A stretch of 58,653 nt of DNA from a virus: IMG/VR virus record IMGVR_UViG_3300006217_000050. One strand, given 5' to 3'. Shown here one piece after another: positions 4,045 through 53,194 of this stretch. Each line of letters opens with the position of its first letter. Position 1 is the stretch's first letter. Both the position numbers and the translations under genes were made by a program. Below the pieces are notes generated by a model. That model was not told where the DNA came from. It made no database searches and saw only the letters and a program-made list of their open reading frames with translations.

Positions 4045-4073
4045 ATAGTAGCATTATGCAACAAATATGTCAA
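4045..4073 (-). promoter_or_regulatory. Leftward early promoter (TTGACA-17-TACTAT)
   Basis: On the minus strand, TTGACA (4068..4073), a 17-nt spacer and TACTAT (4045..4050), upstream of the Cro-like gene. Confidence 0.6.
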
Positions 4074-4114
4074 TAGCTGTGCGCAACTTTTTTTAAATTA
4101 TTTTGTTTTTGCTA

Positions 4115-4143
4115 TTGCATTACGCAATAAAATATAATATAAT
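4115..4143 (+). promoter_or_regulatory. Rightward repressor promoter (TTGCAT-17-TATAAT) overlapping a TTGC-N5-GCAA inverted repeat
   Basis: TTGCAT 4115..4120, 17-nt spacer, TATAAT 4138..4143. TTGCATTACGCAA lies at 4115..4127. Confidence 0.6.
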
Positions 4144-4168
4144 GTCTGTCATAGAGAGGTGATTCAAC

Positions 4169-4612
4169 ATGACAAATGCAGAAATAGGAAATAGAATCAA
4201 ACATGCTCGTGATTTAAGAGATGTTACTTTGGATGATATCGCAAAAAAAGTAGGTGTTGCAAAATCTACTATACAACGCTATGAGACTGGAAAGATTACT
4301 ACTATAAAAATTCCTGTTGTTGAGTCAATCGCCATAGCTTTAAATGTGAATCCTGCATGGATTGTTGGAAAATCTGAAGATATGGAGCTTCCATCACAAA
4401 AGGTTCCAAAAATCATGCAGTATTACGAACAGCTCAACGACATAGGCAAGCATGAAGCCACAAAGAGGGTTGAGGAGCTGACAATGGTTCCGCGGTATGT
4501 TAAAGAAGATCCTGGTTATGTCAATGCGGCCCATGCGGATGATTATGCCAATGCTCCAGAGGAGCTGAAGCAATTAGAAGAAGAAATGATTATGAAAAAA
4601 TTTCTAAAGTAA
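4169..4612 (+). CDS. CI-like XRE-family repressor (no S24 peptidase domain)
   Basis: 147 aa. N-terminal HTH LDDIAKKVGVAKSTIQRYETGK. Followed by an ImmA-like gene, as in ImmR/ImmA modules. Confidence 0.8.
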   Translation: MTNAEIGNRIKHARDLRDVTLDDIAKKVGVAKSTIQRYETGKITTIKIPVVESIAIALNVNPAWIVGKSEDMELPSQKVPKIMQYYEQLNDIGKHEATKRVEELTMVPRYVKEDPGYVNAAHADDYANAPEELKQLEEEMIMKKFLK

Positions 4613-4624
4613 GGAGTTGATTTT

Positions 4625-5080
4625 GTGACATACGAAGACTTGTTGATTGAGGCAGACCAAAACAACATCATCACAAAAGAAGCGCCGCTTCCTATCAGTA
4701 AGGGAAGAATAATGGGGAATTGGATAGCAATAAACAGCAAAATGACCGAAACAGAAAAGAAATGCATCATGGCGGAGGAGCTGGGTCACTATTACACCGG
4801 GTGCGGAGACATCCTGGACCAGTCCTCTGTTGCCAATAGGAAGCAGGAACGGTATGGCCGGGTTCATGCATATAACCGCCTGGTCGGCCTGATCGGGCTC
4901 ATAGACGTGTACAAGCATCACTGTGAAAGCCTTTATGATGCAGCTGAGCACCTGCATGTATCGGAGGATTTCTTAGCAGAATCAATATCATATTACCGAA
5001 GCAAGTACGGAGTCTGCACCACCGTTGATAACTATGTAGTTTATTTTGAGCCGCATATCGGAGTGCTTGAGCTGAAGTAA
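4625..5080 (+). CDS. ImmA/IrrE-like (DUF955) metallopeptidase, putative anti-repressor protease
   Basis: 151 aa, GTG start. EELGH motif in the place of HExxH. Sits immediately downstream of the XRE repressor. Confidence 0.6.
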   Translation: MTYEDLLIEADQNNIITKEAPLPISKGRIMGNWIAINSKMTETEKKCIMAEELGHYYTGCGDILDQSSVANRKQERYGRVHAYNRLVGLIGLIDVYKHHCESLYDAAEHLHVSEDFLAESISYYRSKYGVCTTVDNYVVYFEPHIGVLELK

Positions 5081-5106
5081 CCCTAGAACAGGGAAGAAGG
5101 TGGCGA

Positions 5107-5661
5107 ATGAGTTTAATACTTGGATACGCAACTAAGACAAATGCTGTTATAATGAGCGATGGAAAAGCTGGTGGAACAATAAGGCCATCAGAATCTTGCA
5201 ATAAAACCAGGAAAATTAATGACAATATTATCTTGGGATTTGCCGGATATTTAGAAGATATTACTTATGCTTTCGATTATATCACTGATGTAAGCGGTAA
5301 TGACCTCAATAATTATATGATAGATGATTTTTGGAACATAATTATTTCCTTTATGAGAAATAAGCAAACACCAAAATTTTTCCATTCCTCATTTATTATT
5401 ATTGGACGTCATAATAATGGAAACATGTATACTTCTATAATAGGTGACAATACAAATTATATGCTTGAAGAACACAAAGTGGAAAACCCCCGGTATTTAA
5501 CTATAGGTGGAAGCATTGACGGAGAAATCATCAATCAAATTTACTCTAGTAATATAAAACAATTTGGAAGCCCAATAGAAAAACGCATAATTGATACCAT
5601 AAGGAAAGTATCAGCTCTTGACAACTCCATCAACACAAATACTTTTACCGTTACGATTTAA
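5107..5661 (+). CDS. HslV/20S-proteasome-beta-like Ntn-hydrolase-fold protein (paralog 1)
   Basis: 184 aa. MSLILGYATKTNAVIMSDGKAGG...NKTRKINDNIILGFAGYLEDITYAF aligns by eye with HslV TTIVSV...VVIAGDGQ...[23 protein letters not shown]. A later LTIGGSIDG matches GSGG. Visibly AT-rich. Confidence 0.6.
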   Translation: MSLILGYATKTNAVIMSDGKAGGTIRPSESCNKTRKINDNIILGFAGYLEDITYAFDYITDVSGNDLNNYMIDDFWNIIISFMRNKQTPKFFHSSFIIIGRHNNGNMYTSIIGDNTNYMLEEHKVENPRYLTIGGSIDGEIINQIYSSNIKQFGSPIEKRIIDTIRKVSALDNSINTNTFTVTI

Positions 5662-5784
5662 TGTCGCCGTGTACTGGTCAACATCATCAATGGCAATATC
5701 TAATTTGTTATTGTTCATGTCTCCAAGATCAGTAACTCTTTTAGGATATTTTGACCAGTCAATATGTTTATAATTTTGTTCCAT
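5611..5784 (-). CDS. small ORF (57 aa) convergent with and overlapping the Ntn-like gene; N-terminus resembles a tail-fibre N-terminus
   Basis: ATG 5784 preceded by AAAGGAGA and lying downstream of promoter-like element P1. MEQNYKHIDWSKYPKRVTDLGDMNNNKLDIAIDDVDQ compares with fibre ENIGWENKPSDKSPINKRNLNKMDYSIDVIDDR. Confidence 0.4.
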   Translation of the reverse strand: MEQNYKHIDWSKYPKRVTDLGDMNNNKLDIAIDDVDQYTATLNRNGKSICVDGVVKS

Positions 5785-5812
5785 AGCTTATCTCCTTTTC
5801 TGTTCTATAAAT

Positions 5813-5846
5813 AATTATACATCGTAAAAGGAGCTATTTGTACCAA
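5813..5846 (-). promoter_or_regulatory. Phage-specific promoter-like element P1 (TTGGTACAA-N19-ATAATT)
   Basis: Read on the minus strand. Shares the motif and the exact 19-nt spacing with ten other sites. Confidence 0.55.
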
Positions 5847-5880
5847 AATAAAACCGCCCGGTGCTACCAACACCGAACGG
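5845..5880 (-). terminator. Rho-independent terminator-like hairpin (minus strand)
   Basis: Minus strand reads CCGTTCGGTG-ttggtag-CACCGGGCGG followed by TTTTATTTT. Confidence 0.55.
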
Positions 5881-5893
5881 CTTTAGATACACC

Positions 5894-5950
5894 CCAGAAG
5901 GATGATACATTAGGTCTCCCAAACCTACACACAGTGTATCATCCTCCTGG
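5894..5950. repeat. 16-bp near-perfect inverted repeat with a 25-nt loop (structured RNA/DNA element)
   Basis: ccagaaggatgataca (5894..5909) pairs with tgtatcatcctcctgg (5935..5950), with one mismatch. Confidence 0.6.
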
Positions 5951-6020: not shown

Positions 6021-7049
6021 ATGAAGATTGAAAAGCGAGGATCCGGATCCTACCGGGTCAGGAAGATGTACAAGGGGCAGATGTACACGGTCAATTTTGA
6101 CCACAAGCCCACACAGAAAGAAGCTATGTTGGCTATGGCGGATGAGCTACAGAAGATTCAGACTAAGCATGAGAGCATGGATTTCAAAGCGGCGGCTGAA
6201 GAATATATTGAGGCTAAGAAAAATGTATTGTCTCCCACAACAATAAAGGGTTATAAAAGTGCCATGAAAACCATATCTAAAAAATTCCAGGGCCTAAACA
6301 TACACGACATTACGGCCTTAGATATACAATCCGAGATCAATATTTTAGCAATAGGACACAGCCCGAAGACTGTACGGAACTACCACGGCTTTATTTCGGC
6401 CGTCCTGGGCACATTTTGTCCGAACCTTAAGATTAGTACCACCCTGCCACAAAAACTCAAAAACGAGCCGTATATACCCTCTGATGAAGAAGTGAAGAAA
6501 ATACTAAAATATTCTAAGGGAACCGAGTATGAGATTCCAATAATTCTTGCCTGCTATGGTCTACGTAGATCGGAAATATGCGCATTGACACTCGACGATA
6601 TAGAAGATGATATAGTAACCATTGATAAAGCCAAAGTATTAGCAGACACAGAAACCTGGGTAAACAAAACAACAAAGACAACTTCAAGTACACGGCAAAT
6701 TATTATACCAATGGAAATCGCAGACATGATAAGAAAGAAAGGCTACATATACAAAGGCCATCCTAATTCAATAAACTCTTTCCTGGTAAAAACCGAAGAT
6801 AAACTTGGAATACCACACTTTCCGTTGCATAAACTTCGCCATTATTTTGCATCTAAAATGAGTGCTCTAAATGTGCCGGAAGCAGATATTATGAAGATGG
6901 GTGGATGGGAAACGGATCATGTTATGAAATCAGTTTACCGGCATTCCATGATAAACCAAGAAAAAGACGCTAAGAGGCAAGCAGCTGAAAAGTTAAAAAA
7001 TGCCCTTTTCACCCAGGACAACTCCGGACAAATTCTGGACAAAAAGTGA
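6021..7049 (+). CDS. int: Tyrosine-type site-specific integrase
   Basis: ATG 6021 preceded by AAGGAGG. C-terminal HKLRHYFAS ... GGWETDHVMKSVYRH matches the HxLRH and catalytic Tyr motifs. Confidence 0.9.
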   Translation: MKIEKRGSGSYRVRKMYKGQMYTVNFDHKPTQKEAMLAMADELQKIQTKHESMDFKAAAEEYIEAKKNVLSPTTIKGYKSAMKTISKKFQGLNIHDITALDIQSEINILAIGHSPKTVRNYHGFISAVLGTFCPNLKISTTLPQKLKNEPYIPSDEEVKKILKYSKGTEYEIPIILACYGLRRSEICALTLDDIEDDIVTIDKAKVLADTETWVNKTTKTTSSTRQIIIPMEIADMIRKKGYIYKGHPNSINSFLVKTEDKLGIPHFPLHKLRHYFASKMSALNVPEADIMKMGGWETDHVMKSVYRHSMINQEKDAKRQAAEKLKNALFTQDNSGQILDKK

Positions 7050-7370: not shown

Positions 7371-7472
7371 GAAAATATGGCAGGGATAGGGAGCGCACCC
7401 GACAAAAGCAGCTTTCCACCTTTCATGCTTTCCCTGCCTATGTTGGAAATGGTGGAGAAAGGTGAAGTGTAT

Positions 7473-8273
7473 ATGAATGATTTGACTGTAAAGACTGTGG
7501 ATTTATTTGGCGACAAGGTGGTTGCGGCGCAGGATAAGGACGGTGTTATCTGGGCCGGGGTCAAGTGGTTTTGCAATGGCCTCGGATTTTCGGATGGGCA
7601 GAGGCAAAGACAAACAACTAATATAGGAGAGGATATAGTATTAAGCAAAGGTGTTGCAAATTTGCACCTCCCTACAAGCGGCGGATATCAGGACGTTTTA
7701 TGCCTGAAACTAGATTTCCTTCCCCTATGGCTTGCGAAGATCTCAATCACGCCAAACATGAAAGAGAATAACCCGGAACTGGTGGACAAACTGGTAAAAT
7801 ATCAGTTGCAGGCGAAAGACATTCTGGCGGCAGCATTCATTCCGGCATTCAGGAAAAGGTCAGCCATAGAAGAGCTGCAGGAATTGCAAGGCAGGGCCAT
7901 CCTGGAGGTAAATGAGAAAGTTGACAGCGTAGAAAAGCGCGTAGACTACTTGGAGAATGATATTCCCCTTTATGGCTCAGAAGCCGACGAAATCAGCCGG
8001 AAAGTAAAGAAGAAGGGCGTGGAGATCCTGGGCGGCAGGGAAAGCGATGCCTATACTGATAGTAAACTGCGATCAGAAGTATATTCGGACATATACAACC
8101 AGATTAAGCGCGAGTTCGGCCTGTATGACAGCAACGGGAAATTTGTAACATACAAGGCCCTGAAGAGGCGATACATCAAAGAGGCCCATGTACTCATCGA
8201 AGCTTATACACCGCCGAAATATCTTGAAGAGAAAATAAAAAACTGCAATGCACAGCAACGGTTAATGGAATGA
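7473..8273 (+). CDS. Antirepressor-like protein: P22_AR_N-like N-domain plus ORF6C-like C-domain
   Basis: ATG 7473 (MNDLTVKTVDLFGDKVVAAQDKDGVIWAGVKWFCNGLG...LWLAKISIT). The C-terminus ...KNCNAQQRL parallels the C-terminus of the 14162 gene. Confidence 0.7.
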   Translation: MNDLTVKTVDLFGDKVVAAQDKDGVIWAGVKWFCNGLGFSDGQRQRQTTNIGEDIVLSKGVANLHLPTSGGYQDVLCLKLDFLPLWLAKISITPNMKENNPELVDKLVKYQLQAKDILAAAFIPAFRKRSAIEELQELQGRAILEVNEKVDSVEKRVDYLENDIPLYGSEADEISRKVKKKGVEILGGRESDAYTDSKLRSEVYSDIYNQIKREFGLYDSNGKFVTYKALKRRYIKEAHVLIEAYTPPKYLEEKIKNCNAQQRLME

Positions 8274-8438: not shown

Positions 8439-9083
8439 ATGTCATTATGTATAACTTTTTACAATGAGCATGGAATAATTATGTCAGCAGACAATATGGT
8501 TTGCTCTACCATAGAAAAAGATAATTCTCCATATACCTATCAAGGTTCCAAAACAGAACAAAAACTTTTTCTTATTGAAGACAAATATGGAGTTTCATAC
8601 TCTGGAGCATCAAACATTTACGCTGCTTCTACTTCAGCCTTTTTGGAGGAATACATTACTTCACATCCTATCATTGAAGTCCCACCAAGTGAATGGCTTC
8701 TTGAATTGGCTCAAAAGTGCAATAATTTGCTTAATCCAAGCCAAAACATGGTTTTTATAATGGCCGGATACTATCATTCTGAAAAGTTTGTTGTGACTAC
8801 TAACACTAAAGAGCCAAAATTGAATTTCCAAACAAATAATAGCGGGTTGCTTTATTCAGGAGAAAGTGAATTTATATCACATTTAATCAACTCGGATATA
8901 ATTGCGTTTGAATATTCTAAATTTACCCTGCAAGACGGTGCTGACTTTTTGCGTTTTCTCAACAAAACAGTTTCAGGGTTAATGCACTATGGACAATATC
9001 TCCCAACTGTAAGTGATACCTGCGACCTTTTAGCCATACGTCCTAATGAGACTCGCTGGTTAGAACACTTGACGCTGCACTGA
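8439..9083 (+). CDS. HslV/proteasome-beta-like Ntn-hydrolase-fold protein (paralog 2, divergent)
   Basis: Starts MSLCITFYNEHGIIMSADNM (alternative ATG at 8427). Also KTEQKLFLIEDKYGVSYSGAS and LLYSGESEF, the same pattern as paralog 1. AT-rich. The ORF track extends it to 8301. Confidence 0.5.
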   Translation: MSLCITFYNEHGIIMSADNMVCSTIEKDNSPYTYQGSKTEQKLFLIEDKYGVSYSGASNIYAASTSAFLEEYITSHPIIEVPPSEWLLELAQKCNNLLNPSQNMVFIMAGYYHSEKFVVTTNTKEPKLNFQTNNSGLLYSGESEFISHLINSDIIAFEYSKFTLQDGADFLRFLNKTVSGLMHYGQYLPTVSDTCDLLAIRPNETRWLEHLTLH

Positions 9084-9240
9084 CCGCACAATCAATTCTT
9101 TTCCTAGTAACAGTCGTTACGGATGTTGAGTCTCTATTGGTCATGACTGTTATTAAGACATCTGGCGCTGAAACGGAAATTTCCTGCTCGTTTACGGTGA
9201 TTTCCGTTTTTCCGTTACTGATAATGATTTCTTTATCCAT
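9043..9240 (-). CDS. hypothetical small protein, convergent with and overlapping Ntn-like paralog 2
   Basis: 65-aa ORF downstream of P3. Overlaps the 3' end of 8439..9083 by 41 nt. Confidence 0.4.
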   Translation of the reverse strand: MDKEIIISNGKTEITVNEQEISVSAPDVLITVMTNRDSTSVTTVTRKRIDCAVSAASSVLTSESH

Positions 9241-10247: not shown

Positions 10248-10898
10248 ATGAAAAAGAAGCTATTAACAATGTTGTTGTTGTCTGTATTGGCTGTTAGTGC
10301 TGTGGCGTGCGGCGATAAAGATCCGAGTGAAAGCATTAATTCAGAGTCATCAGAAGAAGAAAATAGCACACAGCCAAAAAGCGAAGAATCCGAAAGCAGC
10401 CGTGAAGAGGAAACTCAAAGTGATGTTCCGGAGGAATCAGACCAGATGCAAGAATCGAATAATACTCATACTGTTGACGGAATCACTATTTCAACTGGTA
10501 CTTTTTCGGTTGAGCCATATGAGGATAACCAGGGAGAGTACACAAAACGAATTGTTATGGAGTTTACGATTAAAAATGAATCTGATTCTGCTTTTGGCTA
10601 TGTAACTACATGGGAGGGCCGGTTAAGCGATGGATACAAGCTTAAAACGTGGGCAGATTTGATGAGTATGGATTTGAACCAGGTTGCATCAGGCAGTGAA
10701 AAGACTGATAAGGCATATTTTCTGCTTGATGATAGCATAGACCCTGATGAAATAACTGTATCTTATAACTTTATGGATTATGGCGAAGAATACTGGGAAG
10801 ATTTTGGAAAAATTGTGACTGGAGAAATGGGCGAGGATGAGTATATGAGCAAGTACGGAGACTATGAGGTTCTGGAATTTAACGTAGTAAAAGAGTAA
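10248..10898 (+). CDS. Lipoprotein (possible superinfection-exclusion / surface protein)
   Basis: Signal peptide with lipobox LAVSAVAC-G, then a Ser/Glu-rich linker and a beta-rich domain. Confidence 0.7.
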   Translation: MKKKLLTMLLLSVLAVSAVACGDKDPSESINSESSEEENSTQPKSEESESSREEETQSDVPEESDQMQESNNTHTVDGITISTGTFSVEPYEDNQGEYTKRIVMEFTIKNESDSAFGYVTTWEGRLSDGYKLKTWADLMSMDLNQVASGSEKTDKAYFLLDDSIDPDEITVSYNFMDYGEEYWEDFGKIVTGEMGEDEYMSKYGDYEVLEFNVVKE

Positions 10899-10961: not shown

Positions 10962-12083
10962 ATGGCCTTAATACAAAAAATTATTGAAAGATTAAAATTA
11001 GAAAGCTCTGCCAACAGCTTTGTTCCAGACGGTCAAACAATATATTTCATAAACGGGAAAATGTATAAAGTTTATCCTACTGATCAGGAAAGTTGGTATG
11101 ATGCAAGATATTTGGTATCTGACAATAGAAAATATGATTTGGAAAATATTGAACATATTAGAATGATACCAATACCTGCCTTTAAACGGTTAGAAAATGA
11201 CCAATACGGTGTAACAGGAGCACTAGATTATGTATTGCGAATGAAAGCAGGGGCATTTTTTACCAGAAAAGAAAAAGAGCTGTGTTCTGCTTGCTTATGG
11301 AAGGCAACTGAAATGATGTTCGCCAATCCTCTTTGTTCATGGAGTAAAAAAGATTATATCAGACTTATACAATGGCATCAAAAACTTGACATGATGGATG
11401 AGGCTGACCGTGCGAAAAGGTATTTAGAAAGCAAAGGAATGATTTTTACAGAGTATGAATTGCAGACTAAAAAATCTGAACCTAAAAAACAATCTAAGCC
11501 ATCACAAAGGAAAAAGAGCGCACCCAAAGAAAAAATAGACTGGAGAGAAAAAGAACTTATTACAGTGCAAAACACAGCTACCGAAGATATGCGGTTGTTA
11601 CAGATGCCATTTGTATGCAATACTGAAGTAAAAAAGTATGTACATGAGGGAAATCACCCATTTGCATATATGGAAATACTGGGGGAAAATATCAATATTG
11701 TTAAAGCCGAAATCAAAAAAATGAATGCCATCATAAAAGAAGGCATAAGAAATTATCCGGGCATTCCGCAAAATTTGAGTATTCCGGCAGGCTCCCTAGT
11801 CTTTCAATCTCCTAATGAAGGATACGGATATACCCGAATAATGTGTACTCCTAAAACTTATGAGGGAAACAAGTCAAAACATCCATATACTTTATATTTC
11901 TGCACAGACCTTTCTAAGAGAGGAAATACAACACATGGAGAATTGACTTACGGACAGGACGGAAAAGTCCAGAAAGCAAAGGTTGTTTTTTGGAGGAATA
12001 ATAATCAGTTTGTCTTAAATTTCAAGATGGTAGACGGAAAGTTGACGTTTACGGATATGGGGCAGAACAGACCGACATGGTAA
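10962..12083 (+). CDS. hypothetical two-domain protein with a Lys-rich linker
   Basis: 373 aa. Linker KKSEPKKQSKPSQRKKSAPKEK. No domain recognised. AT-rich. Confidence 0.6.
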   Translation: MALIQKIIERLKLESSANSFVPDGQTIYFINGKMYKVYPTDQESWYDARYLVSDNRKYDLENIEHIRMIPIPAFKRLENDQYGVTGALDYVLRMKAGAFFTRKEKELCSACLWKATEMMFANPLCSWSKKDYIRLIQWHQKLDMMDEADRAKRYLESKGMIFTEYELQTKKSEPKKQSKPSQRKKSAPKEKIDWREKELITVQNTATEDMRLLQMPFVCNTEVKKYVHEGNHPFAYMEILGENINIVKAEIKKMNAIIKEGIRNYPGIPQNLSIPAGSLVFQSPNEGYGYTRIMCTPKTYEGNKSKHPYTLYFCTDLSKRGNTTHGELTYGQDGKVQKAKVVFWRNNNQFVLNFKMVDGKLTFTDMGQNRPTW

Positions 12084-28331: not shown

Positions 28332-28468
28332 ACCGGAATTGAACCGATGTCTCGTCTATTGACGTGTTCTGCCCGCCTAAACTATTTTCTGCTGACAAAA
28401 AGTGCCCGGATTTGAACCGGGGTTCCTGCGCTGATAACGCTGCTTCTTCCTCGTGAGCTACTTCTTTT
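28332..28468 (-). pseudogene. Two tRNA-like relics (good T-arms, poor acceptor/anticodon pairing)
   Basis: Minus-strand T-arms are ATCGGTTCAATTCCGGT (28332..28348) and CCCGGTTCAAATCCGGG (28405..28421). I could not fold canonical cloverleaves. Confidence 0.35.
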
Positions 28469-28856
28469 TGTTTAAGTGATTATACCACAATTTCTCAATC
28501 CTCTCAACCATTTTCTTTTCTTCGGTAGTAAGATTTGATGCTCCTTTAGGACCGTCATTTTCAAAGTGTATATAACCATGATGAGTATGCGGCTTCATCT
28601 TTTTGTGTGGGTGATCTAAATCAACAGACTTTACTCGTTTATTGTTAGAATCAAAATACATTACTGATAACAAGTCTTTTCCACCAACTGTAACATATAC
28701 CCTTCCGGGAGTCATTGTTTCCATGAGTGTTTCTGATGTGCGATCAGTTTTGGTAACAAATTTTATATTTCCGTTTTGCAGAATTGTATTATATTCACTT
28801 CCGTACTTCTTCCCCTTGTTGGATATACCCGAACTGGCCCCTCTTCCTCCCATCAC
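28458..28856 (-). CDS. hypothetical protein, possibly a MuF-C-terminal-like domain
   Basis: 132 aa. Begins MMGGRGASSG, with a His-rich HPHKKMKPHTHHGY. AT-rich. Confidence 0.5.
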   Translation of the reverse strand: MMGGRGASSGISNKGKKYGSEYNTILQNGNIKFVTKTDRTSETLMETMTPGRVYVTVGGKDLLSVMYFDSNNKRVKSVDLDHPHKKMKPHTHHGYIHFENDGPKGASNLTTEEKKMVERIEKLWYNHLNKKK

Positions 28857-35664: not shown

Positions 35665-35754
35665 TCGGGAAAGTTGGAATCGAACCAACAATGTTTACCG
35701 CGTGGGAACGGATTTACAGTCCGCCGCAACACCACCAATCGTTGCCGTTTCCCG
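35665..35754 (-). tRNA. tRNA-Tyr (anticodon GTA), long variable arm, no encoded CCA
   Basis: Hand fold. Acceptor CGGGAAA/TTTCCCG (7 bp). D-stem GCAAC/GTTGC. Anticodon stem CGGA/TCCG with loop CTGTAAA. T-arm GTTGG-TTCGATT-CCAAC. Confidence 0.75.
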
Positions 35755-36385: not shown

Positions 36386-36461
36386 TGGAAAGTATAGGAA
36401 TCGAACCTATCTCGCCGGTGCTAGCCTCCCAGCAGTTTCACGCCAGATAACACAACTTTCC
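36386..36461 (-). ncRNA. 76-nt tRNA-like element (perfect 7-bp acceptor and T-arm; anticodon region non-canonical)
   Basis: Acceptor GGAAAGT/ACTTTCC. T-arm ATAGG-TTCGATT-CCTAT. GG at the D-loop position. The best anticodon helix leaves a 6-, 8- or 10-nt loop containing CTA. Confidence 0.4.
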
Positions 36462-36650
36462 ACTGTCCATTTTCTGTCTGCAAGGACCGTGCAGTGCGGA
36501 CTTACATAGTTTAACGTGTTCTTAAAGCCGATATTCGTTGCGAGAAACGCCACGTTTGGCACTTTTGTCCTGGCCGCAGATCGTTAATTAAATGTTTGCT
36601 TTGTGATTCCGAGTCTTCATGTCGGCATCCTCCTTTTGCTTGATAGATAC

Positions 36651-50614: not shown

Positions 50615-52018
50615 TCATAGTTCATCCAGATTACTTCCTGCCTCTGTTTTCCTCCCTCTGCACAACTCAGGCAGGTTCGCTTTGACCAATGCCGCTGGTA
50701 TGGGAGGACACACCGCATTTCCGCACCGCTTTACCTGTTCACTCTTTGGATAGTTCTTCCAAGTATAATCCCTAGCAATAACGTAATCATCCGGAAAGCC
50801 TTGGCACCCATACAATTCTTTCGGACTCAGCATCCGTAGCCCAATATCTGATATCTTATAGTCCTCCCCTTGGATAGTCACCAAGCCGAACCTGTCCTGT
50901 GCCGTCACCGTGCCCAGCGGCTCCTTTATGTCCTGTCCAGTACCCTGCCCATAATATTTAATCAGATAAGCCCTAACCTCTCCAAAGTGCCCTGGAGAAC
51001 ATGTGACCGTATGCAACGGCTCCCTCAAGTCTTGTCCTATACCACTTTTATAAAATTTACTCAGGAACGATGTTACCAGTCCATACCGATTGGATGTGTC
51101 TACTGTCATGATGGGATCTTCTATCCCCTGTCCACGAACTTCATCCTTCGATGTCTCAAAGTGATATTGTATTAATACCGGAGATAACATCTTTTCGCCC
51201 TCTTGTACAACATATGGGTCAGGATTATCCAACACAAACTTCTTTATTCCTCTGGCGATCCTGTCCATGGTCTTTTCTGCCAGCGGCCTGACCGCCCGGA
51301 TACCGTGTTTCTCCTTGATTTCCTCCGCTGTATCGAAAATGCTAGGGCACGGCAGGGAAAAGTCTATCTGAGTATATGCACCTATGTAAGGCTTCCGCAA
51401 GCCTGCTACAACCTCCAGACTGCCTGCCGGGGCGTGTGTCGGATCCGGCCAGACAATCGGCCTGCAGTCACATCTGGCAATCAGGAAGAACCGCTTGCGC
51501 ATTGTCGGCGCTCCATAGTCTGCCGCCGTCAACTCCCGGTGCTCTACTTGGTACCCCAGCTCCTGCAACTGGCTTATAAACTTCTGGAATGTTGTACCCT
51601 GTTTTGTCTTGATAGGTCTATGTCCCCGGTTCAGCGGCCCCCATGTCCTGAATTCCTCTACGTTTTCCAACATTATGACCCGCGGCCTGACCATTCCCGC
51701 CCACCGCAACACTACCCATGCAAGCCCCCGAATATTTTTGTTTTTGGGCTTGCCCCCTTTTGCCTTGGAGAAGTGCTTGCAATCCGGACTAAACCATGCC
51801 AGTGCTACAGGATGCCCTTCGCAGGCTCTTACCGGATCAACATCCCATACAGATTCACAGTAATGAGTTGCGCCCGGATGGTTGGTTTTATGCATCCGTA
51901 TGGCTTCTGGGTCATGGTTGATAGCAATATCCACGCTTACCCCTGTTGCCATCTCTATGCCTGTGCTGGCACCGCCGCCACCTGCGAAATTATCAACTAT
52001 CAGTTCGCCATTTATCAT
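50615..52018 (-). CDS. DNA (cytosine-5)-methyltransferase
   Basis: Motif I DNFAGGGGAS, motif IV-like SPDCKHFS, motif VI MLENVEEF. Confidence 0.8.
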   Translation of the reverse strand: MINGELIVDNFAGGGGASTGIEMATGVSVDIAINHDPEAIRMHKTNHPGATHYCESVWDVDPVRACEGHPVALAWFSPDCKHFSKAKGGKPKNKNIRGLAWVVLRWAGMVRPRVIMLENVEEFRTWGPLNRGHRPIKTKQGTTFQKFISQLQELGYQVEHRELTAADYGAPTMRKRFFLIARCDCRPIVWPDPTHAPAGSLEVVAGLRKPYIGAYTQIDFSLPCPSIFDTAEEIKEKHGIRAVRPLAEKTMDRIARGIKKFVLDNPDPYVVQEGEKMLSPVLIQYHFETSKDEVRGQGIEDPIMTVDTSNRYGLVTSFLSKFYKSGIGQDLREPLHTVTCSPGHFGEVRAYLIKYYGQGTGQDIKEPLGTVTAQDRFGLVTIQGEDYKISDIGLRMLSPKELYGCQGFPDDYVIARDYTWKNYPKSEQVKRCGNAVCPPIPAALVKANLPELCRGRKTEAGSNLDEL

Positions 52019-52072: not shown

Positions 52073-53194
52073 TCACTCTTCTATGTAGTCAAATATTTCC
52101 ATCTGTCCACTCGCATTTGCCTTATTTTCTTTTTCCTTTTTTAATCTAGAGTTCTTGTAGTCGTTATACTTCTTACGATACTCATAGCTTTTTCCGAATA
52201 TATTCCATGCGGCCTTCACAACATTGGGCTCGTATGGGCGTATCTTCTCCAGGTCGTCTACCGCCTTATATGAGATTGGACAACCACAGCATCCTGTCCT
52301 TGTGAGACCATAAACCTCATATGCATCCGAATATCTAATCCCAAACTGTGCTTTGTACCAGTCCTTGTCTTTGTCTGTGACATAGTAAAGCGGCCTGAAC
52401 CTGTACTGCCCGCTACTTGTCTCCGTAAAGCAGAGCGCCGTATTATCTTTTCTGGGCACCGACCGCATTCCACCCTCGTCCCTGCGCTCTCCGGTAATTA
52501 TCATCTCATAATCTTTCTGGACACTGTGCGCCACCTGTTTTTTGCAATAATCACAGCATTTTGCGCTGATCTGAAAATCCGGTGGGTACTCACCAATAAA
52601 ATCTCGCATATATTTTGACGAGTTAATCACAAGCTGTATATTCGGTCTTGGCTCACCCGCTGAATTGCAGCAACATAAAAAATTGATTATGCTCTCACAT
52701 TTGGGAAACCTCTCACTCAGCTCCCGTCTTTTTGCCGCCTTATTCTCTGCCTGTTCATATTCATCAGCTATTTGCAGGGGGATCCCCTTTTTCTGCCACC
52801 CCTCAAGTCCAGCAGACATTATTTTTGACACGAATGGAACACCATGTTCCCTCACCGCCTGCACAATGCCAACCTTCGGCCTAACTTCTTCAATTTCCAC
52901 TCCATACTTTTCCCCAGTTGCCTTTACATGGTCTTTTATGGCATTCATCTCCAGGCCTGTATTGAAGAATACATACTTGACCGGCGGAAGGGACGGAGAA
53001 ATTTTCCTCGCTGACTCAATCAGGTCAATCATAATGTCGCTGTCCGCTCCCCCTGAATAAGAGCATATGGCCCTCGGGTGCTGTCTGAGATGCGTCATTA
53101 TAATCCCTGTTATCGCTTGGAATTTTTCCGGAGCATCAAGGTCAGCATAATCTGGCCTATCTGTATATACTTTGCTTCTGTATGGTTCGCTCAT
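52073..53194 (-). CDS. PAPS-reductase/PP-loop family protein (DndC/IbrA-like)
   Basis: PP-loop SYSGGADS and a C-terminal Cys cluster RTGCCGCP. Confidence 0.7.
   Translation of the reverse strand: MSEPYRSKVYTDRPDYADLDAPEKFQAITGIIMTHLRQHPRAICSYSGGADSDIMIDLIESARKISPSLPPVKYVFFNTGLEMNAIKDHVKATGEKYGVEIEEVRPKVGIVQAVREHGVPFVSKIMSAGLEGWQKKGIPLQIADEYEQAENKAAKRRELSERFPKCESIINFLCCCNSAGEPRPNIQLVINSSKYMRDFIGEYPPDFQISAKCCDYCKKQVAHSVQKDYEMIITGERRDEGGMRSVPRKDNTALCFTETSSGQYRFRPLYYVTDKDKDWYKAQFGIRYSDAYEVYGLTRTGCCGCPISYKAVDDLEKIRPYEPNVVKAAWNIFGKSYEYRKKYNDYKNSRLKKEKENKANASGQMEIFDYIEE

Follow-up and report, generated by a model that had tools for sequence, protein, structure and literature searches.

A probable proteasome/HslV-type Ntn hydrolase in the lysogeny operon of a temperate phage and its frequent small convergent partner

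Identity and fold of the hydrolase

The stretch of DNA analyzed here (IMG/VR virus record IMGVR_UViG_3300006217_000050, 58,653 nucleotides; referred to as the window) comprises the complete 58.6-kb genome of a temperate siphovirus-type phage. The third gene of its lysogeny operon, at positions 5107 to 5661, encodes a protein, referred to as the hydrolase, that is very probably an N-terminal nucleophile (Ntn) hydrolase of the proteasome/HslV type. From its conserved residues and gene neighborhoods we infer its biological role, and the reading that we tentatively prefer is that of a lysogen-expressed, ATP-independent peptidase with a Ser1 nucleophile that forms part of an accessory or defense cassette.

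The hydrolase matches the Pfam family PF00227 (Proteasome) over residues 4 to 61, with an E value of 4.1e-7 and a score of 30.3 bits against a cut-off of 22.4, and most of its database relatives bear a precomputed match to the same family. PHROG_1040 ("peptidase HslV family") matches weakly (E = 0.008). A profile of 36 homologs retrieves 20S beta subunits and HslV from the Protein Data Bank (PDB), and its hhalign alignment with HslV of Escherichia coli (NC_000913.3) has an E value of 8e-5, in a register that places Asp18 on Asp17, Lys33 on Lys33, and GFAG on GFAG.

The AlphaFold2 (AF2) monomer model of the hydrolase has a predicted local distance difference test score (pLDDT) of 92.6 and a predicted template modeling score (pTM) of 0.89. 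Strands (E) and helices (H) follow each other in the order E E E E H H (H) E E E E H H E, which gives the topology S1-S4, H1, H2, S5-S8, H3, H4, S9-10, without the C-terminal H5; helices H1 and H2 span residues 49 to 69 and 72 to 84, respectively. The model and its Foldseek matches present the four-layer alpha-beta-beta-alpha fold of proteasome-family Ntn hydrolases. The top match in the PDB is HslV of Trypanosoma brucei (4hnz; E = 2.6e-10, template modeling [TM] scores of 0.70/0.73, 190 columns). There are 1198 PDB matches at E ≤ 0.001, and the best 50 are all HslV or 20S proteasome subunits, with HslV leading and the 20S beta subunits next. An earlier sequence-only reading of this DNA had proposed an HslV/proteasome-beta-like Ntn hydrolase and had suggested structural comparison as a check; Pfam, hhalign, and the model with its Foldseek matches bear the proposal out, HslV being the best structural match.

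Active-site residues and family conservation

When the initiator methionine is removed from the translation, serine becomes residue 1, an aspartate falls at position 17, and lysines fall at positions 32 and 35, exactly as the sequence-only reading had stated. Residues M1, S2, D18, G19, K33, K36, G44, and G47 are invariant in 36 close homologs, which are 45 to 58% identical to the hydrolase and nearly all 184 amino acids long. An exhaustive profile search of 1.84 billion representatives yielded no more than 273 proteins at E ≤ 0.001; nearly without exception, they have 180 to 210 amino acids, a Met-Ser start, and no N-terminal extension. Conservation was scored in 117 full-length representatives of at most 50% mutual identity, where Ser2 (99%), Asp18 (99%), Lys33 (100%), Gly47 (100%), and Asn176 (98%) are retained. 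The three positions singled out beforehand as a test of the assignment, Ser2, Asp18, and Lys33, are therefore kept in 99 to 100% of the representatives. The proposed equivalence of the segment LTIGGSIDG with the GSGG loop of HslV fared less evenly: the topology agrees (a strand, a Gly-rich loop, and a helix), but conservation of the loop does not extend to the wider family.

A serine that follows the initiator methionine is a good context for methionine aminopeptidase, and the nucleophile of the hydrolase can therefore be exposed without autoprocessing. Among proteasome-like homologs, propeptides are confined to proteasome beta and HslV (PMC8665760), and the propeptide-less hydrolase with its Met-Ser start agrees with this statement. 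As a separate observation, one database relative (P0003) is called as a 238-amino-acid protein with an N-terminal Peptidase_S24 (LexA/CI-type) piece. This suggests that in the corresponding phage the hydrolase gene may lie directly after, and be merged with, the gene of an S24 self-cleaving repressor, not an XRE/ImmA pair.

The same conservation bears on whether the hydrolase is an active enzyme. Ser1, Asp17, Lys33, and Gly47 are 99 to 100% conserved across representatives that are otherwise 25 to 50% identical, and intact full-length open reading frames (ORFs) are present in hundreds of contigs. An inactive relic or a purely structural protein is thus highly improbable, even though the proteasome homolog BPH and some other homologs are inert in vitro (PMC5777263) and the second-shell loop varies.

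Search for a partner unfoldase

A Walker-A scan of the whole window, together with Pfam searches of its large ORFs, found no HslU-like ATPase, in agreement with the earlier reading. The ORFs with a Walker-A motif are only those of the terminase, a DUF927 primase-helicase, and an AAA_24 protein, and an HslV ortholog with a hidden HslU in the phage was rejected on this ground. No AAA+ gene is linked to the hydrolase gene in approximately 20 distinct related neighborhoods, and no NCBIfam family, HslV included, matches the hydrolase at E ≤ 10.

These negative results weigh on the idea that the hydrolase is an HslV substitute that recruits an AAA+ unfoldase of the host (HslU/CodX or ClpX/ClpY-like) for ATP-dependent proteolysis with a specificity chosen by the phage. 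Such recruitment would suit a protein whose best structural match is HslV. CodW, the Ser1-type HslV of Bacillus subtilis, is active only with its ATPase (PMC5777263), and the homolog in Roseburia phage Jekyll is annotated as "ATP dependent," by homology only. The lack of a match to the HslV model and of a linked ATPase gene speaks against it, as does the survey of Fuchs, Alva and Lupas, which found a co-occurring AAA+ protein for none of its new proteasome homologs (PMC8665760). We regard recruitment of a host unfoldase as quite unlikely.

A small ORF that converges on the hydrolase gene

A hydrophilic small ORF on the opposite strand converges on the hydrolase gene and overlaps its 3' end, with a promoter-like hexamer and a terminator-like hairpin upstream (Table 1). 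Of the 12 loci checked, which represent both of the small-ORF families described below, 8 have a −10-like hexamer equally far from the small ORF (−34 to −37), and equivalent hairpins occupy the same place in related loci L001, L015, L020, L046, and L059. Outside the overlap, the family shares the motif Y-x-x-I-D-W-S-x-Y-P-P-I-E-x-C-x-x-x-G-D-T-N-x-N. Divergence by codon position in the nonoverlapping part is 5/6/17, a third-position bias, and the 55 protein-database clusters of the family contain no Pfam domain.

Homologs of the small ORF adjoin the hydrolase gene in many loci, and of the contigs read, all 23 with a small ORF identical to that of the window have the hydrolase gene beside it. 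The arrangement varies in L014, where the small gene is co-directional with the hydrolase gene and overlaps its stop codon by 4 nucleotides (nt). In a distant subfamily (L043, L046, and L057), a different family of convergent ORFs of about 55 amino acids takes the same place with a similar overlap. Most loci thus have a small partner ORF, in one or the other of two orientations, but one lineage (L028-L031) has no small ORF at all, and the pairing is therefore best described as frequent and conserved in architecture but not obligatory. An obligatory antitoxin is correspondingly weakened as an explanation.

Two other explanations were rejected. The small ORF is not an artifact of gene calling in the AT-rich 3' end of the hydrolase gene, given its own Shine-Dalgarno (SD) sequence, the −10 hexamer at a fixed distance, the conservation outside the overlap, the third-position bias, and the 55 clusters. 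Neither is it an excisionase, because the type of recombinase that the identical ORF accompanies differs between L001 (tyrosine integrase) and L003 (serine recombinase), and the small ORF persists without a nearby integrase in L033 and L014.

The pairing could also be that of an enzyme and its substrate, in which cleavage at the motif, or a ligation like that of connectase, would release or attach a signal or toxin peptide. Both the convergent arrangement and the co-directional one of L014 preserve the pairing, and the enzyme might recognize the conserved short motif. Passages of PMC7980362 and PMC8665760 on connectase show that a proteasome homolog can be a sequence-specific ligase. Connectase, however, is without helices H1 and H2 (PMC8665760), which the AF2 model of the hydrolase has. 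The small ORF carries neither a signal peptide nor a hydrophobic segment (grand average of hydropathy of −0.3 to −1.6), is missing in L028-L031, and is replaced by an unrelated family in the sister subfamily. We consider an enzyme-substrate pair improbable.

Organization of the lysogeny operon

Pfam searches of the large ORFs of the phage identified the terminase, a minor capsid protein, a C5-methylase, and the DUF927 primase-helicase, and the same phage was found integrated beside host genes in a metagenome-assembled genome (L048). The repressor, ImmA, and hydrolase genes lie on one strand with gaps of 12 nt and then 26 nt, and a scan found no terminator-like site between them. This layout and the integrase gene that follows substantiate the earlier description of the hydrolase gene as the third of the operon, after repressor and ImmA and before int. 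Its ATG is preceded by a good SD sequence, GAAGGTGG, and the ImmA translation displays an HExxH-like motif, AEELGHYY. The hydrolase gene had also been called visibly more AT-rich than its neighbors. Its G+C content is 31.5%, against 44.7% for the window, which places it in the lowest 0.3% of 555-nt windows.

TABLE 1 Features of the lysogeny region of the window
Feature	Position	Strand	Basis or remark
Divergent promoter-like sites of the lysis/lysogeny switch	4045-4138	.	Consensus scan, pattern matches only
Promoter-like TTGACA-17-TACTAT with TG, facing leftward genes	4073-4045	-	Consensus scan
Promoter-like TTGCTA-18-TATAAT, upstream of repressor	4109-4138	+	Consensus scan
XRE/CI-type helix-turn-helix (HTH) repressor, 147 aa, operon gene 1	4169-4612	+	Pfam HTH_3, E = 4e-12; PHROG transcriptional regulator/repressor families
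ImmA/IrrE-type M78 metalloprotease, 151 aa, operon gene 2	4625-5080	+	Pfam Peptidase_M78, E = 1.8e-5, above cut-off; PHROG_87 metallo-protease, E = 2.7e-32
HslV-like proteasome-family Ntn hydrolase (probable), 184 aa, operon gene 3	5107-5661	+	Pfam, AF2 model, Foldseek, hhalign, conservation
Hydrophilic 57-aa small ORF, last 17 codons overlapping hydrolase 3' end	5611-5784	-	SD AAGGAG 7 nt before ATG
Perfect −10 hexamer TATAAT, 35 nt upstream of small-ORF ATG	5814-5819	-	Promoter by pattern only
17-bp G+C-rich hairpin with T-run, terminator-like, just upstream of small-ORF promoter	5849-5885	-	Hairpin scan
Tyrosine integrase, ATG at 6021 after AGGAGG	6021-7049	+	Pfam Phage_integrase, E = 7e-11, and Phage_int_SAM_3; PHROG_1 integrase, E = 4e-51

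A perfect 10-bp inverted repeat, GGATGATACA ... TGTATCATCC, lies at 5900-5909 and 5935-5944, with arms 25 nt apart and about 76 nt upstream of the integrase ATG, and may be a regulatory or recombinase-related site.

Gene neighborhoods in relatives

Relatives of the hydrolase occur in Lachnospiraceae, Eubacteriaceae, Ruminococcus, and Enterocloster hosts. The commonest gene order, found in most lineages, is repressor, ImmA, zero or one variable gene, hydrolase, integrase, and host DNA, and the repressor-ImmA-hydrolase order holds even in the approximately 30%-identical subfamily of L043-L046. ImmA is absent beside the hydrolase in L033, L034-36, L050-53, L054, and L057. In L034 the hydrolase gene follows an HTH gene, and in L057 an HTH gene, small genes, the hydrolase gene, and an integrase gene succeed one another. 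L033 presents an antirepressor gene and the hydrolase gene, then Ltp and PD-Lambda-1 (E = 5e-113), and L050 exemplifies larger phages in which the hydrolase gene is placed next to an antirepressor gene. In L054 the hydrolase gene is part of a DISARM-like island in an Enterocloster chromosome and is directly preceded by genes for DrmB (E = 4e-66), a NERD-helicase (E = 2e-52), and Vsr. The XRE-ImmA-int context, whose conservation had been proposed as a check, is accordingly frequent but not universal (exceptions, L033, L034, L050, L054, and L057).

The recurring neighbors of the hydrolase are defense genes. Between ImmA and the hydrolase, L007 encodes an Mrr-like nuclease (4924-5910) that matches PADLOC ZorD-nuclease and type IV restriction endonuclease models with E values down to 7e-15, and phage Jekyll (L059) has a gene annotated "putative restriction endonuclease" (4125-4967). 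The corresponding gene of L001 (5176-5967) encodes a 263-amino-acid protein without a match in any library. L001 and L003 share an identical repressor-ImmA-263aa-hydrolase-small-ORF block. In the former it is joined to a tyrosine integrase at an efp-side site, in the latter to a serine recombinase next to fur, and the recombination breakpoint of this module exchange falls just after the small ORF.

The position of the hydrolase gene next to ImmA could also mean that the enzyme is a dedicated component of the ImmR/ImmA switch, which would clear the repressor fragments left by ImmA cleavage or set the levels of ImmA or repressor and thereby tune induction. In most lineages, the approximately 30%-identical L043-L046 among them, ImmA immediately precedes the hydrolase gene or is separated from it by a single gene, and the hydrolase gene travels with the immunity genes and not with int, because the same block occurs with the two types of recombinase in L001 and L003. 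A passage of PMC10584840 describes a need for host ClpX-dependent removal of cleaved CI fragments if induction of Staphylococcus aureus phages is to be completed. The members without ImmA do not fit a dedicated component: some follow a plain HTH repressor (L034 and L057), others stand beside antirepressor genes far from the switch (L033 and L050), and one is in the chromosomal DISARM-like island (L054). Variable defense-type genes are inserted between ImmA and the hydrolase gene, and the strong AT bias is that of an exchangeable accessory gene. We therefore judge a dedicated switch component unlikely. Among the three functions put forward by the sequence-only reading (a defense effector, a regulator of the lysis-lysogeny switch, and a hijacker of a host unfoldase), the gene neighborhoods favor the defense effector.

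A putative mechanism and its weight

Under the preferred reading of an accessory or defense cassette, the hydrolase would be catalytically competent; methionine aminopeptidase would strip Met1 and expose the Ser1 nucleophile of a protein that needs no propeptide, and Asp17, Lys33, and the Gly47 oxyanion position would complete the active site. The lysogenic promoter is predicted to drive cotranscription of the hydrolase gene with those of the repressor and ImmA, and because of this cotranscription the hydrolase would be made in lysogens. Without a dedicated unfoldase, it would work independently of ATP, probably in oligomeric form as its relatives do, and its substrates would be peptides, unfolded proteins, or specific proteins. 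Paired with the convergent small ORF, which has its own putative promoter, it may constitute a mobile AT-rich accessory cassette, to which the small ORF could contribute an inhibitory or sensing function or antisense transcripts. The role of the cassette would most likely be protection of the lysogen, by defense or superinfection exclusion, rather than service in the phage's own switch.

A more specific version is that the Ser1 hydrolase and the small ORF are a hitherto unrecognized prophage defense cassette of gut Clostridia, of an abortive-infection or toxin-antitoxin-like kind, which we hold to be rather unlikely. Here a self-compartmentalizing ATP-independent protease would be held in check by the labile small protein, by antisense transcription, or by both, and superinfection would release it. 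The alternatives discussed in the preceding sections are not all mutually exclusive.

Several points weigh against the accessory or defense cassette. The L028-L031 lineage does without any small ORF, and the presence of ImmA directly or nearly upstream in most loci could mean a role in the ImmR/ImmA switch. No family of PADLOC-DB v2 matches the hydrolase at E ≤ 10. With no PADLOC or NCBIfam match, the hydrolase was rejected as a known defense protein, and the company that a gene keeps in prophage accessory (moron) slots is a weak guide to its function. The GSGG-like second shell of the active site differs across the wider family, and the related BPH is inert in standard assays (PMC5777263).

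A physiological role is known for none of the ATPase-less proteasome homologs catalogued in bacteria and phages. The hydrolase family supplies the context that the 2021 survey did not find, namely, a lysogeny operon, repeated defense neighbors, and a conserved small partner. If the cassette is a defense or switch component, a proteasome-type protease joins the systems of phage-host conflict; if it is neither, the hydrolase is one more annotated HslV-like accessory gene.

A second proteasome-like gene and other features of the window

The window contains a second, likewise AT-rich (35.8% G+C) proteasome-like gene at 8439-9083 (+), which encodes 214 amino acids starting with MSLCITFYNEHGIIMSADN and follows the gene of an Ant-like antirepressor (7377-8273). 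In its 13-member family, Ser2, Asp18, Lys42, and Gly56 are invariant. The AF2 model of this protein is poor (pLDDT of 52.7); in the Foldseek search, the best 50 of 232 PDB matches at E ≤ 0.001 all belong to the proteasome family, with Anbu first (E = 2.3e-7). Searches of Pfam, PHROG, NCBIfam, and PADLOC gave no match, and BLASTP and hhalign found no significant similarity to the hydrolase. The second homolog occurs without the hydrolase in other phages, near HTH and integrase genes. Given the absence of similarity, and since neither family accompanies the other in related loci, the two genes were rejected as paralogs or obligate partners.

Convergent ORFs also overlap the 3' end of the second homolog by about 40 to 50 nt, at 9043-9240 (-) in the window, 5605-5922 in L037, and 5593-5817 in L040. 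These ORFs were rejected as a conserved family, as they show no conservation outside the overlap, and for this reason they may be unrelated genes or chance ORFs.

To the right of int, the accessory region contains a gene at 10248-10898 (+) for a 216-amino-acid protein with a lipoprotein-like N terminus (MKKKLLTMLLLSVLAVSAVAC) and an acidic Ser/Glu-rich linker, and a gene at 10962-12083 (+) for a 373-amino-acid protein without a Pfam match; both are candidate lysogenic-conversion or exclusion genes. ARAGORN calls three tRNAs in the structural-gene region, at 28396-28469, 35665-35754, and 36386-36475 (-), namely, Asp(atc) and the 90-nt Tyr(gta) and Ala(ggc). Their anticodons and lengths are unusual, and they may therefore be false positives or phage tRNAs. 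Among the replication genes, a C-5 cytosine DNA methylase adjoins a PAPS-reductase-domain protein (50615-52018 [-] and 52073-53194 [-]), a possible anti-restriction or DNA-modification pair.

Comparison with known systems

In its compact alpha-beta-beta-alpha fold, its length (about 175 to 185 amino acids), and its aligned Asp17, Lys33, and GFAG oxyanion segment, the hydrolase resembles HslV (ClpQ) and CodW, and it shares the Ser nucleophile with CodW. Further precedents for such a nucleophile are one Anbu and some BPH subfamilies (PMC5777263). It differs from HslV in sequence, with about 18% identity in the Foldseek alignment and no match to the NCBIfam HslV model, and in the lack of hslU in the phage. 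HslV is encoded in a heat-shock operon, whereas the hydrolase gene belongs to a prophage lysogeny operon, and the GSGG loop is not a family-wide trait of the hydrolase family. BPH and Anbu, like the hydrolase, are without a partner unfoldase; they are self-compartmentalizing, and some BPH subfamilies have Ser in place of Thr. In contrast to the hydrolase, they are encoded by housekeeping-type chromosomal genes, mainly of Proteobacteria, and neither is among the best 50 of its 1198 Foldseek matches.

The sequence-only reading knew of no described phage-borne, ATPase-less proteasome homolog, a claim that the survey of Fuchs, Alva and Lupas from 2021 and phage Jekyll refute. The survey described 22 new proteasome homologs (PMC8665760), including PPH, AAH, CPH, DAH, and PMI-4 in phages and FC1-FC5 in Firmicutes. 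PPH was presented as "the first true viral member," AAH was spread into Firmicutes and Bacteroidetes by phages, and representatives of the AAH, CPH, and FC clusters include WP_035979212, WP_008185288, and WP_075525441 (PMC8665760). PPH, AAH, CPH, and FC1-FC5 are similar to the hydrolase in that they stand alone without a propeptide or an AAA+ partner, are spread by phages, also into Firmicutes, and conserve Thr1/Ser1, Asp17, Lys33, and Gly47. PPH is described as a protein of about 140 amino acids without helix H2 (PMC8665760), whereas the hydrolase has 184 amino acids with both H1 and H2. The authors of the survey reported "no genomic contexts ... suggestive of a specific function" (PMC8665760); in contrast, the hydrolase family has a conserved lysogeny/defense context and the small partner ORF.

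The closest described system is that of Roseburia phage Jekyll (LR596902.1), whose VUE37436.1, annotated "protease, ATP dependent, HslV-like," is 50.5% identical to the hydrolase over the full length. The module of Jekyll consists of Xre, an ImmA-like gene, a nuclease gene, the hydrolase gene, a convergent 53-amino-acid ORF (-), and the integrase gene; it differs from that of the window in the extra nuclease between ImmA and hydrolase and in having a serine recombinase instead of a tyrosine integrase. Jekyll is a cultivable, mitomycin-inducible prophage of Roseburia intestinalis L1-82, and in the paper on this phage the hydrolase gene is annotated but neither discussed nor tested. The existence of this cultivable and inducible model prophage makes the function of a stand-alone proteasome relative directly testable. 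Other members in recent NCBI records are WP_342979579.1, MDM8298117.1, and DAK25317.1, the last named "Proteasome subunit alpha type-2 [Caudoviricetes sp.]" and the others "hypothetical protein," and BFVD contains 27 phage proteins with the fold of the hydrolase at E ≤ 0.001. Literature searches yielded nothing relevant on HslV-like phage proteases or on proteasome homologs or HslV in anti-phage defense. That ATPase-less proteasome-like genes of this kind exist in phages, where they have been catalogued and annotated, is already known; the partner ORF, the defense-gene neighborhoods, and the second, Anbu-like homolog in the same phage are new.

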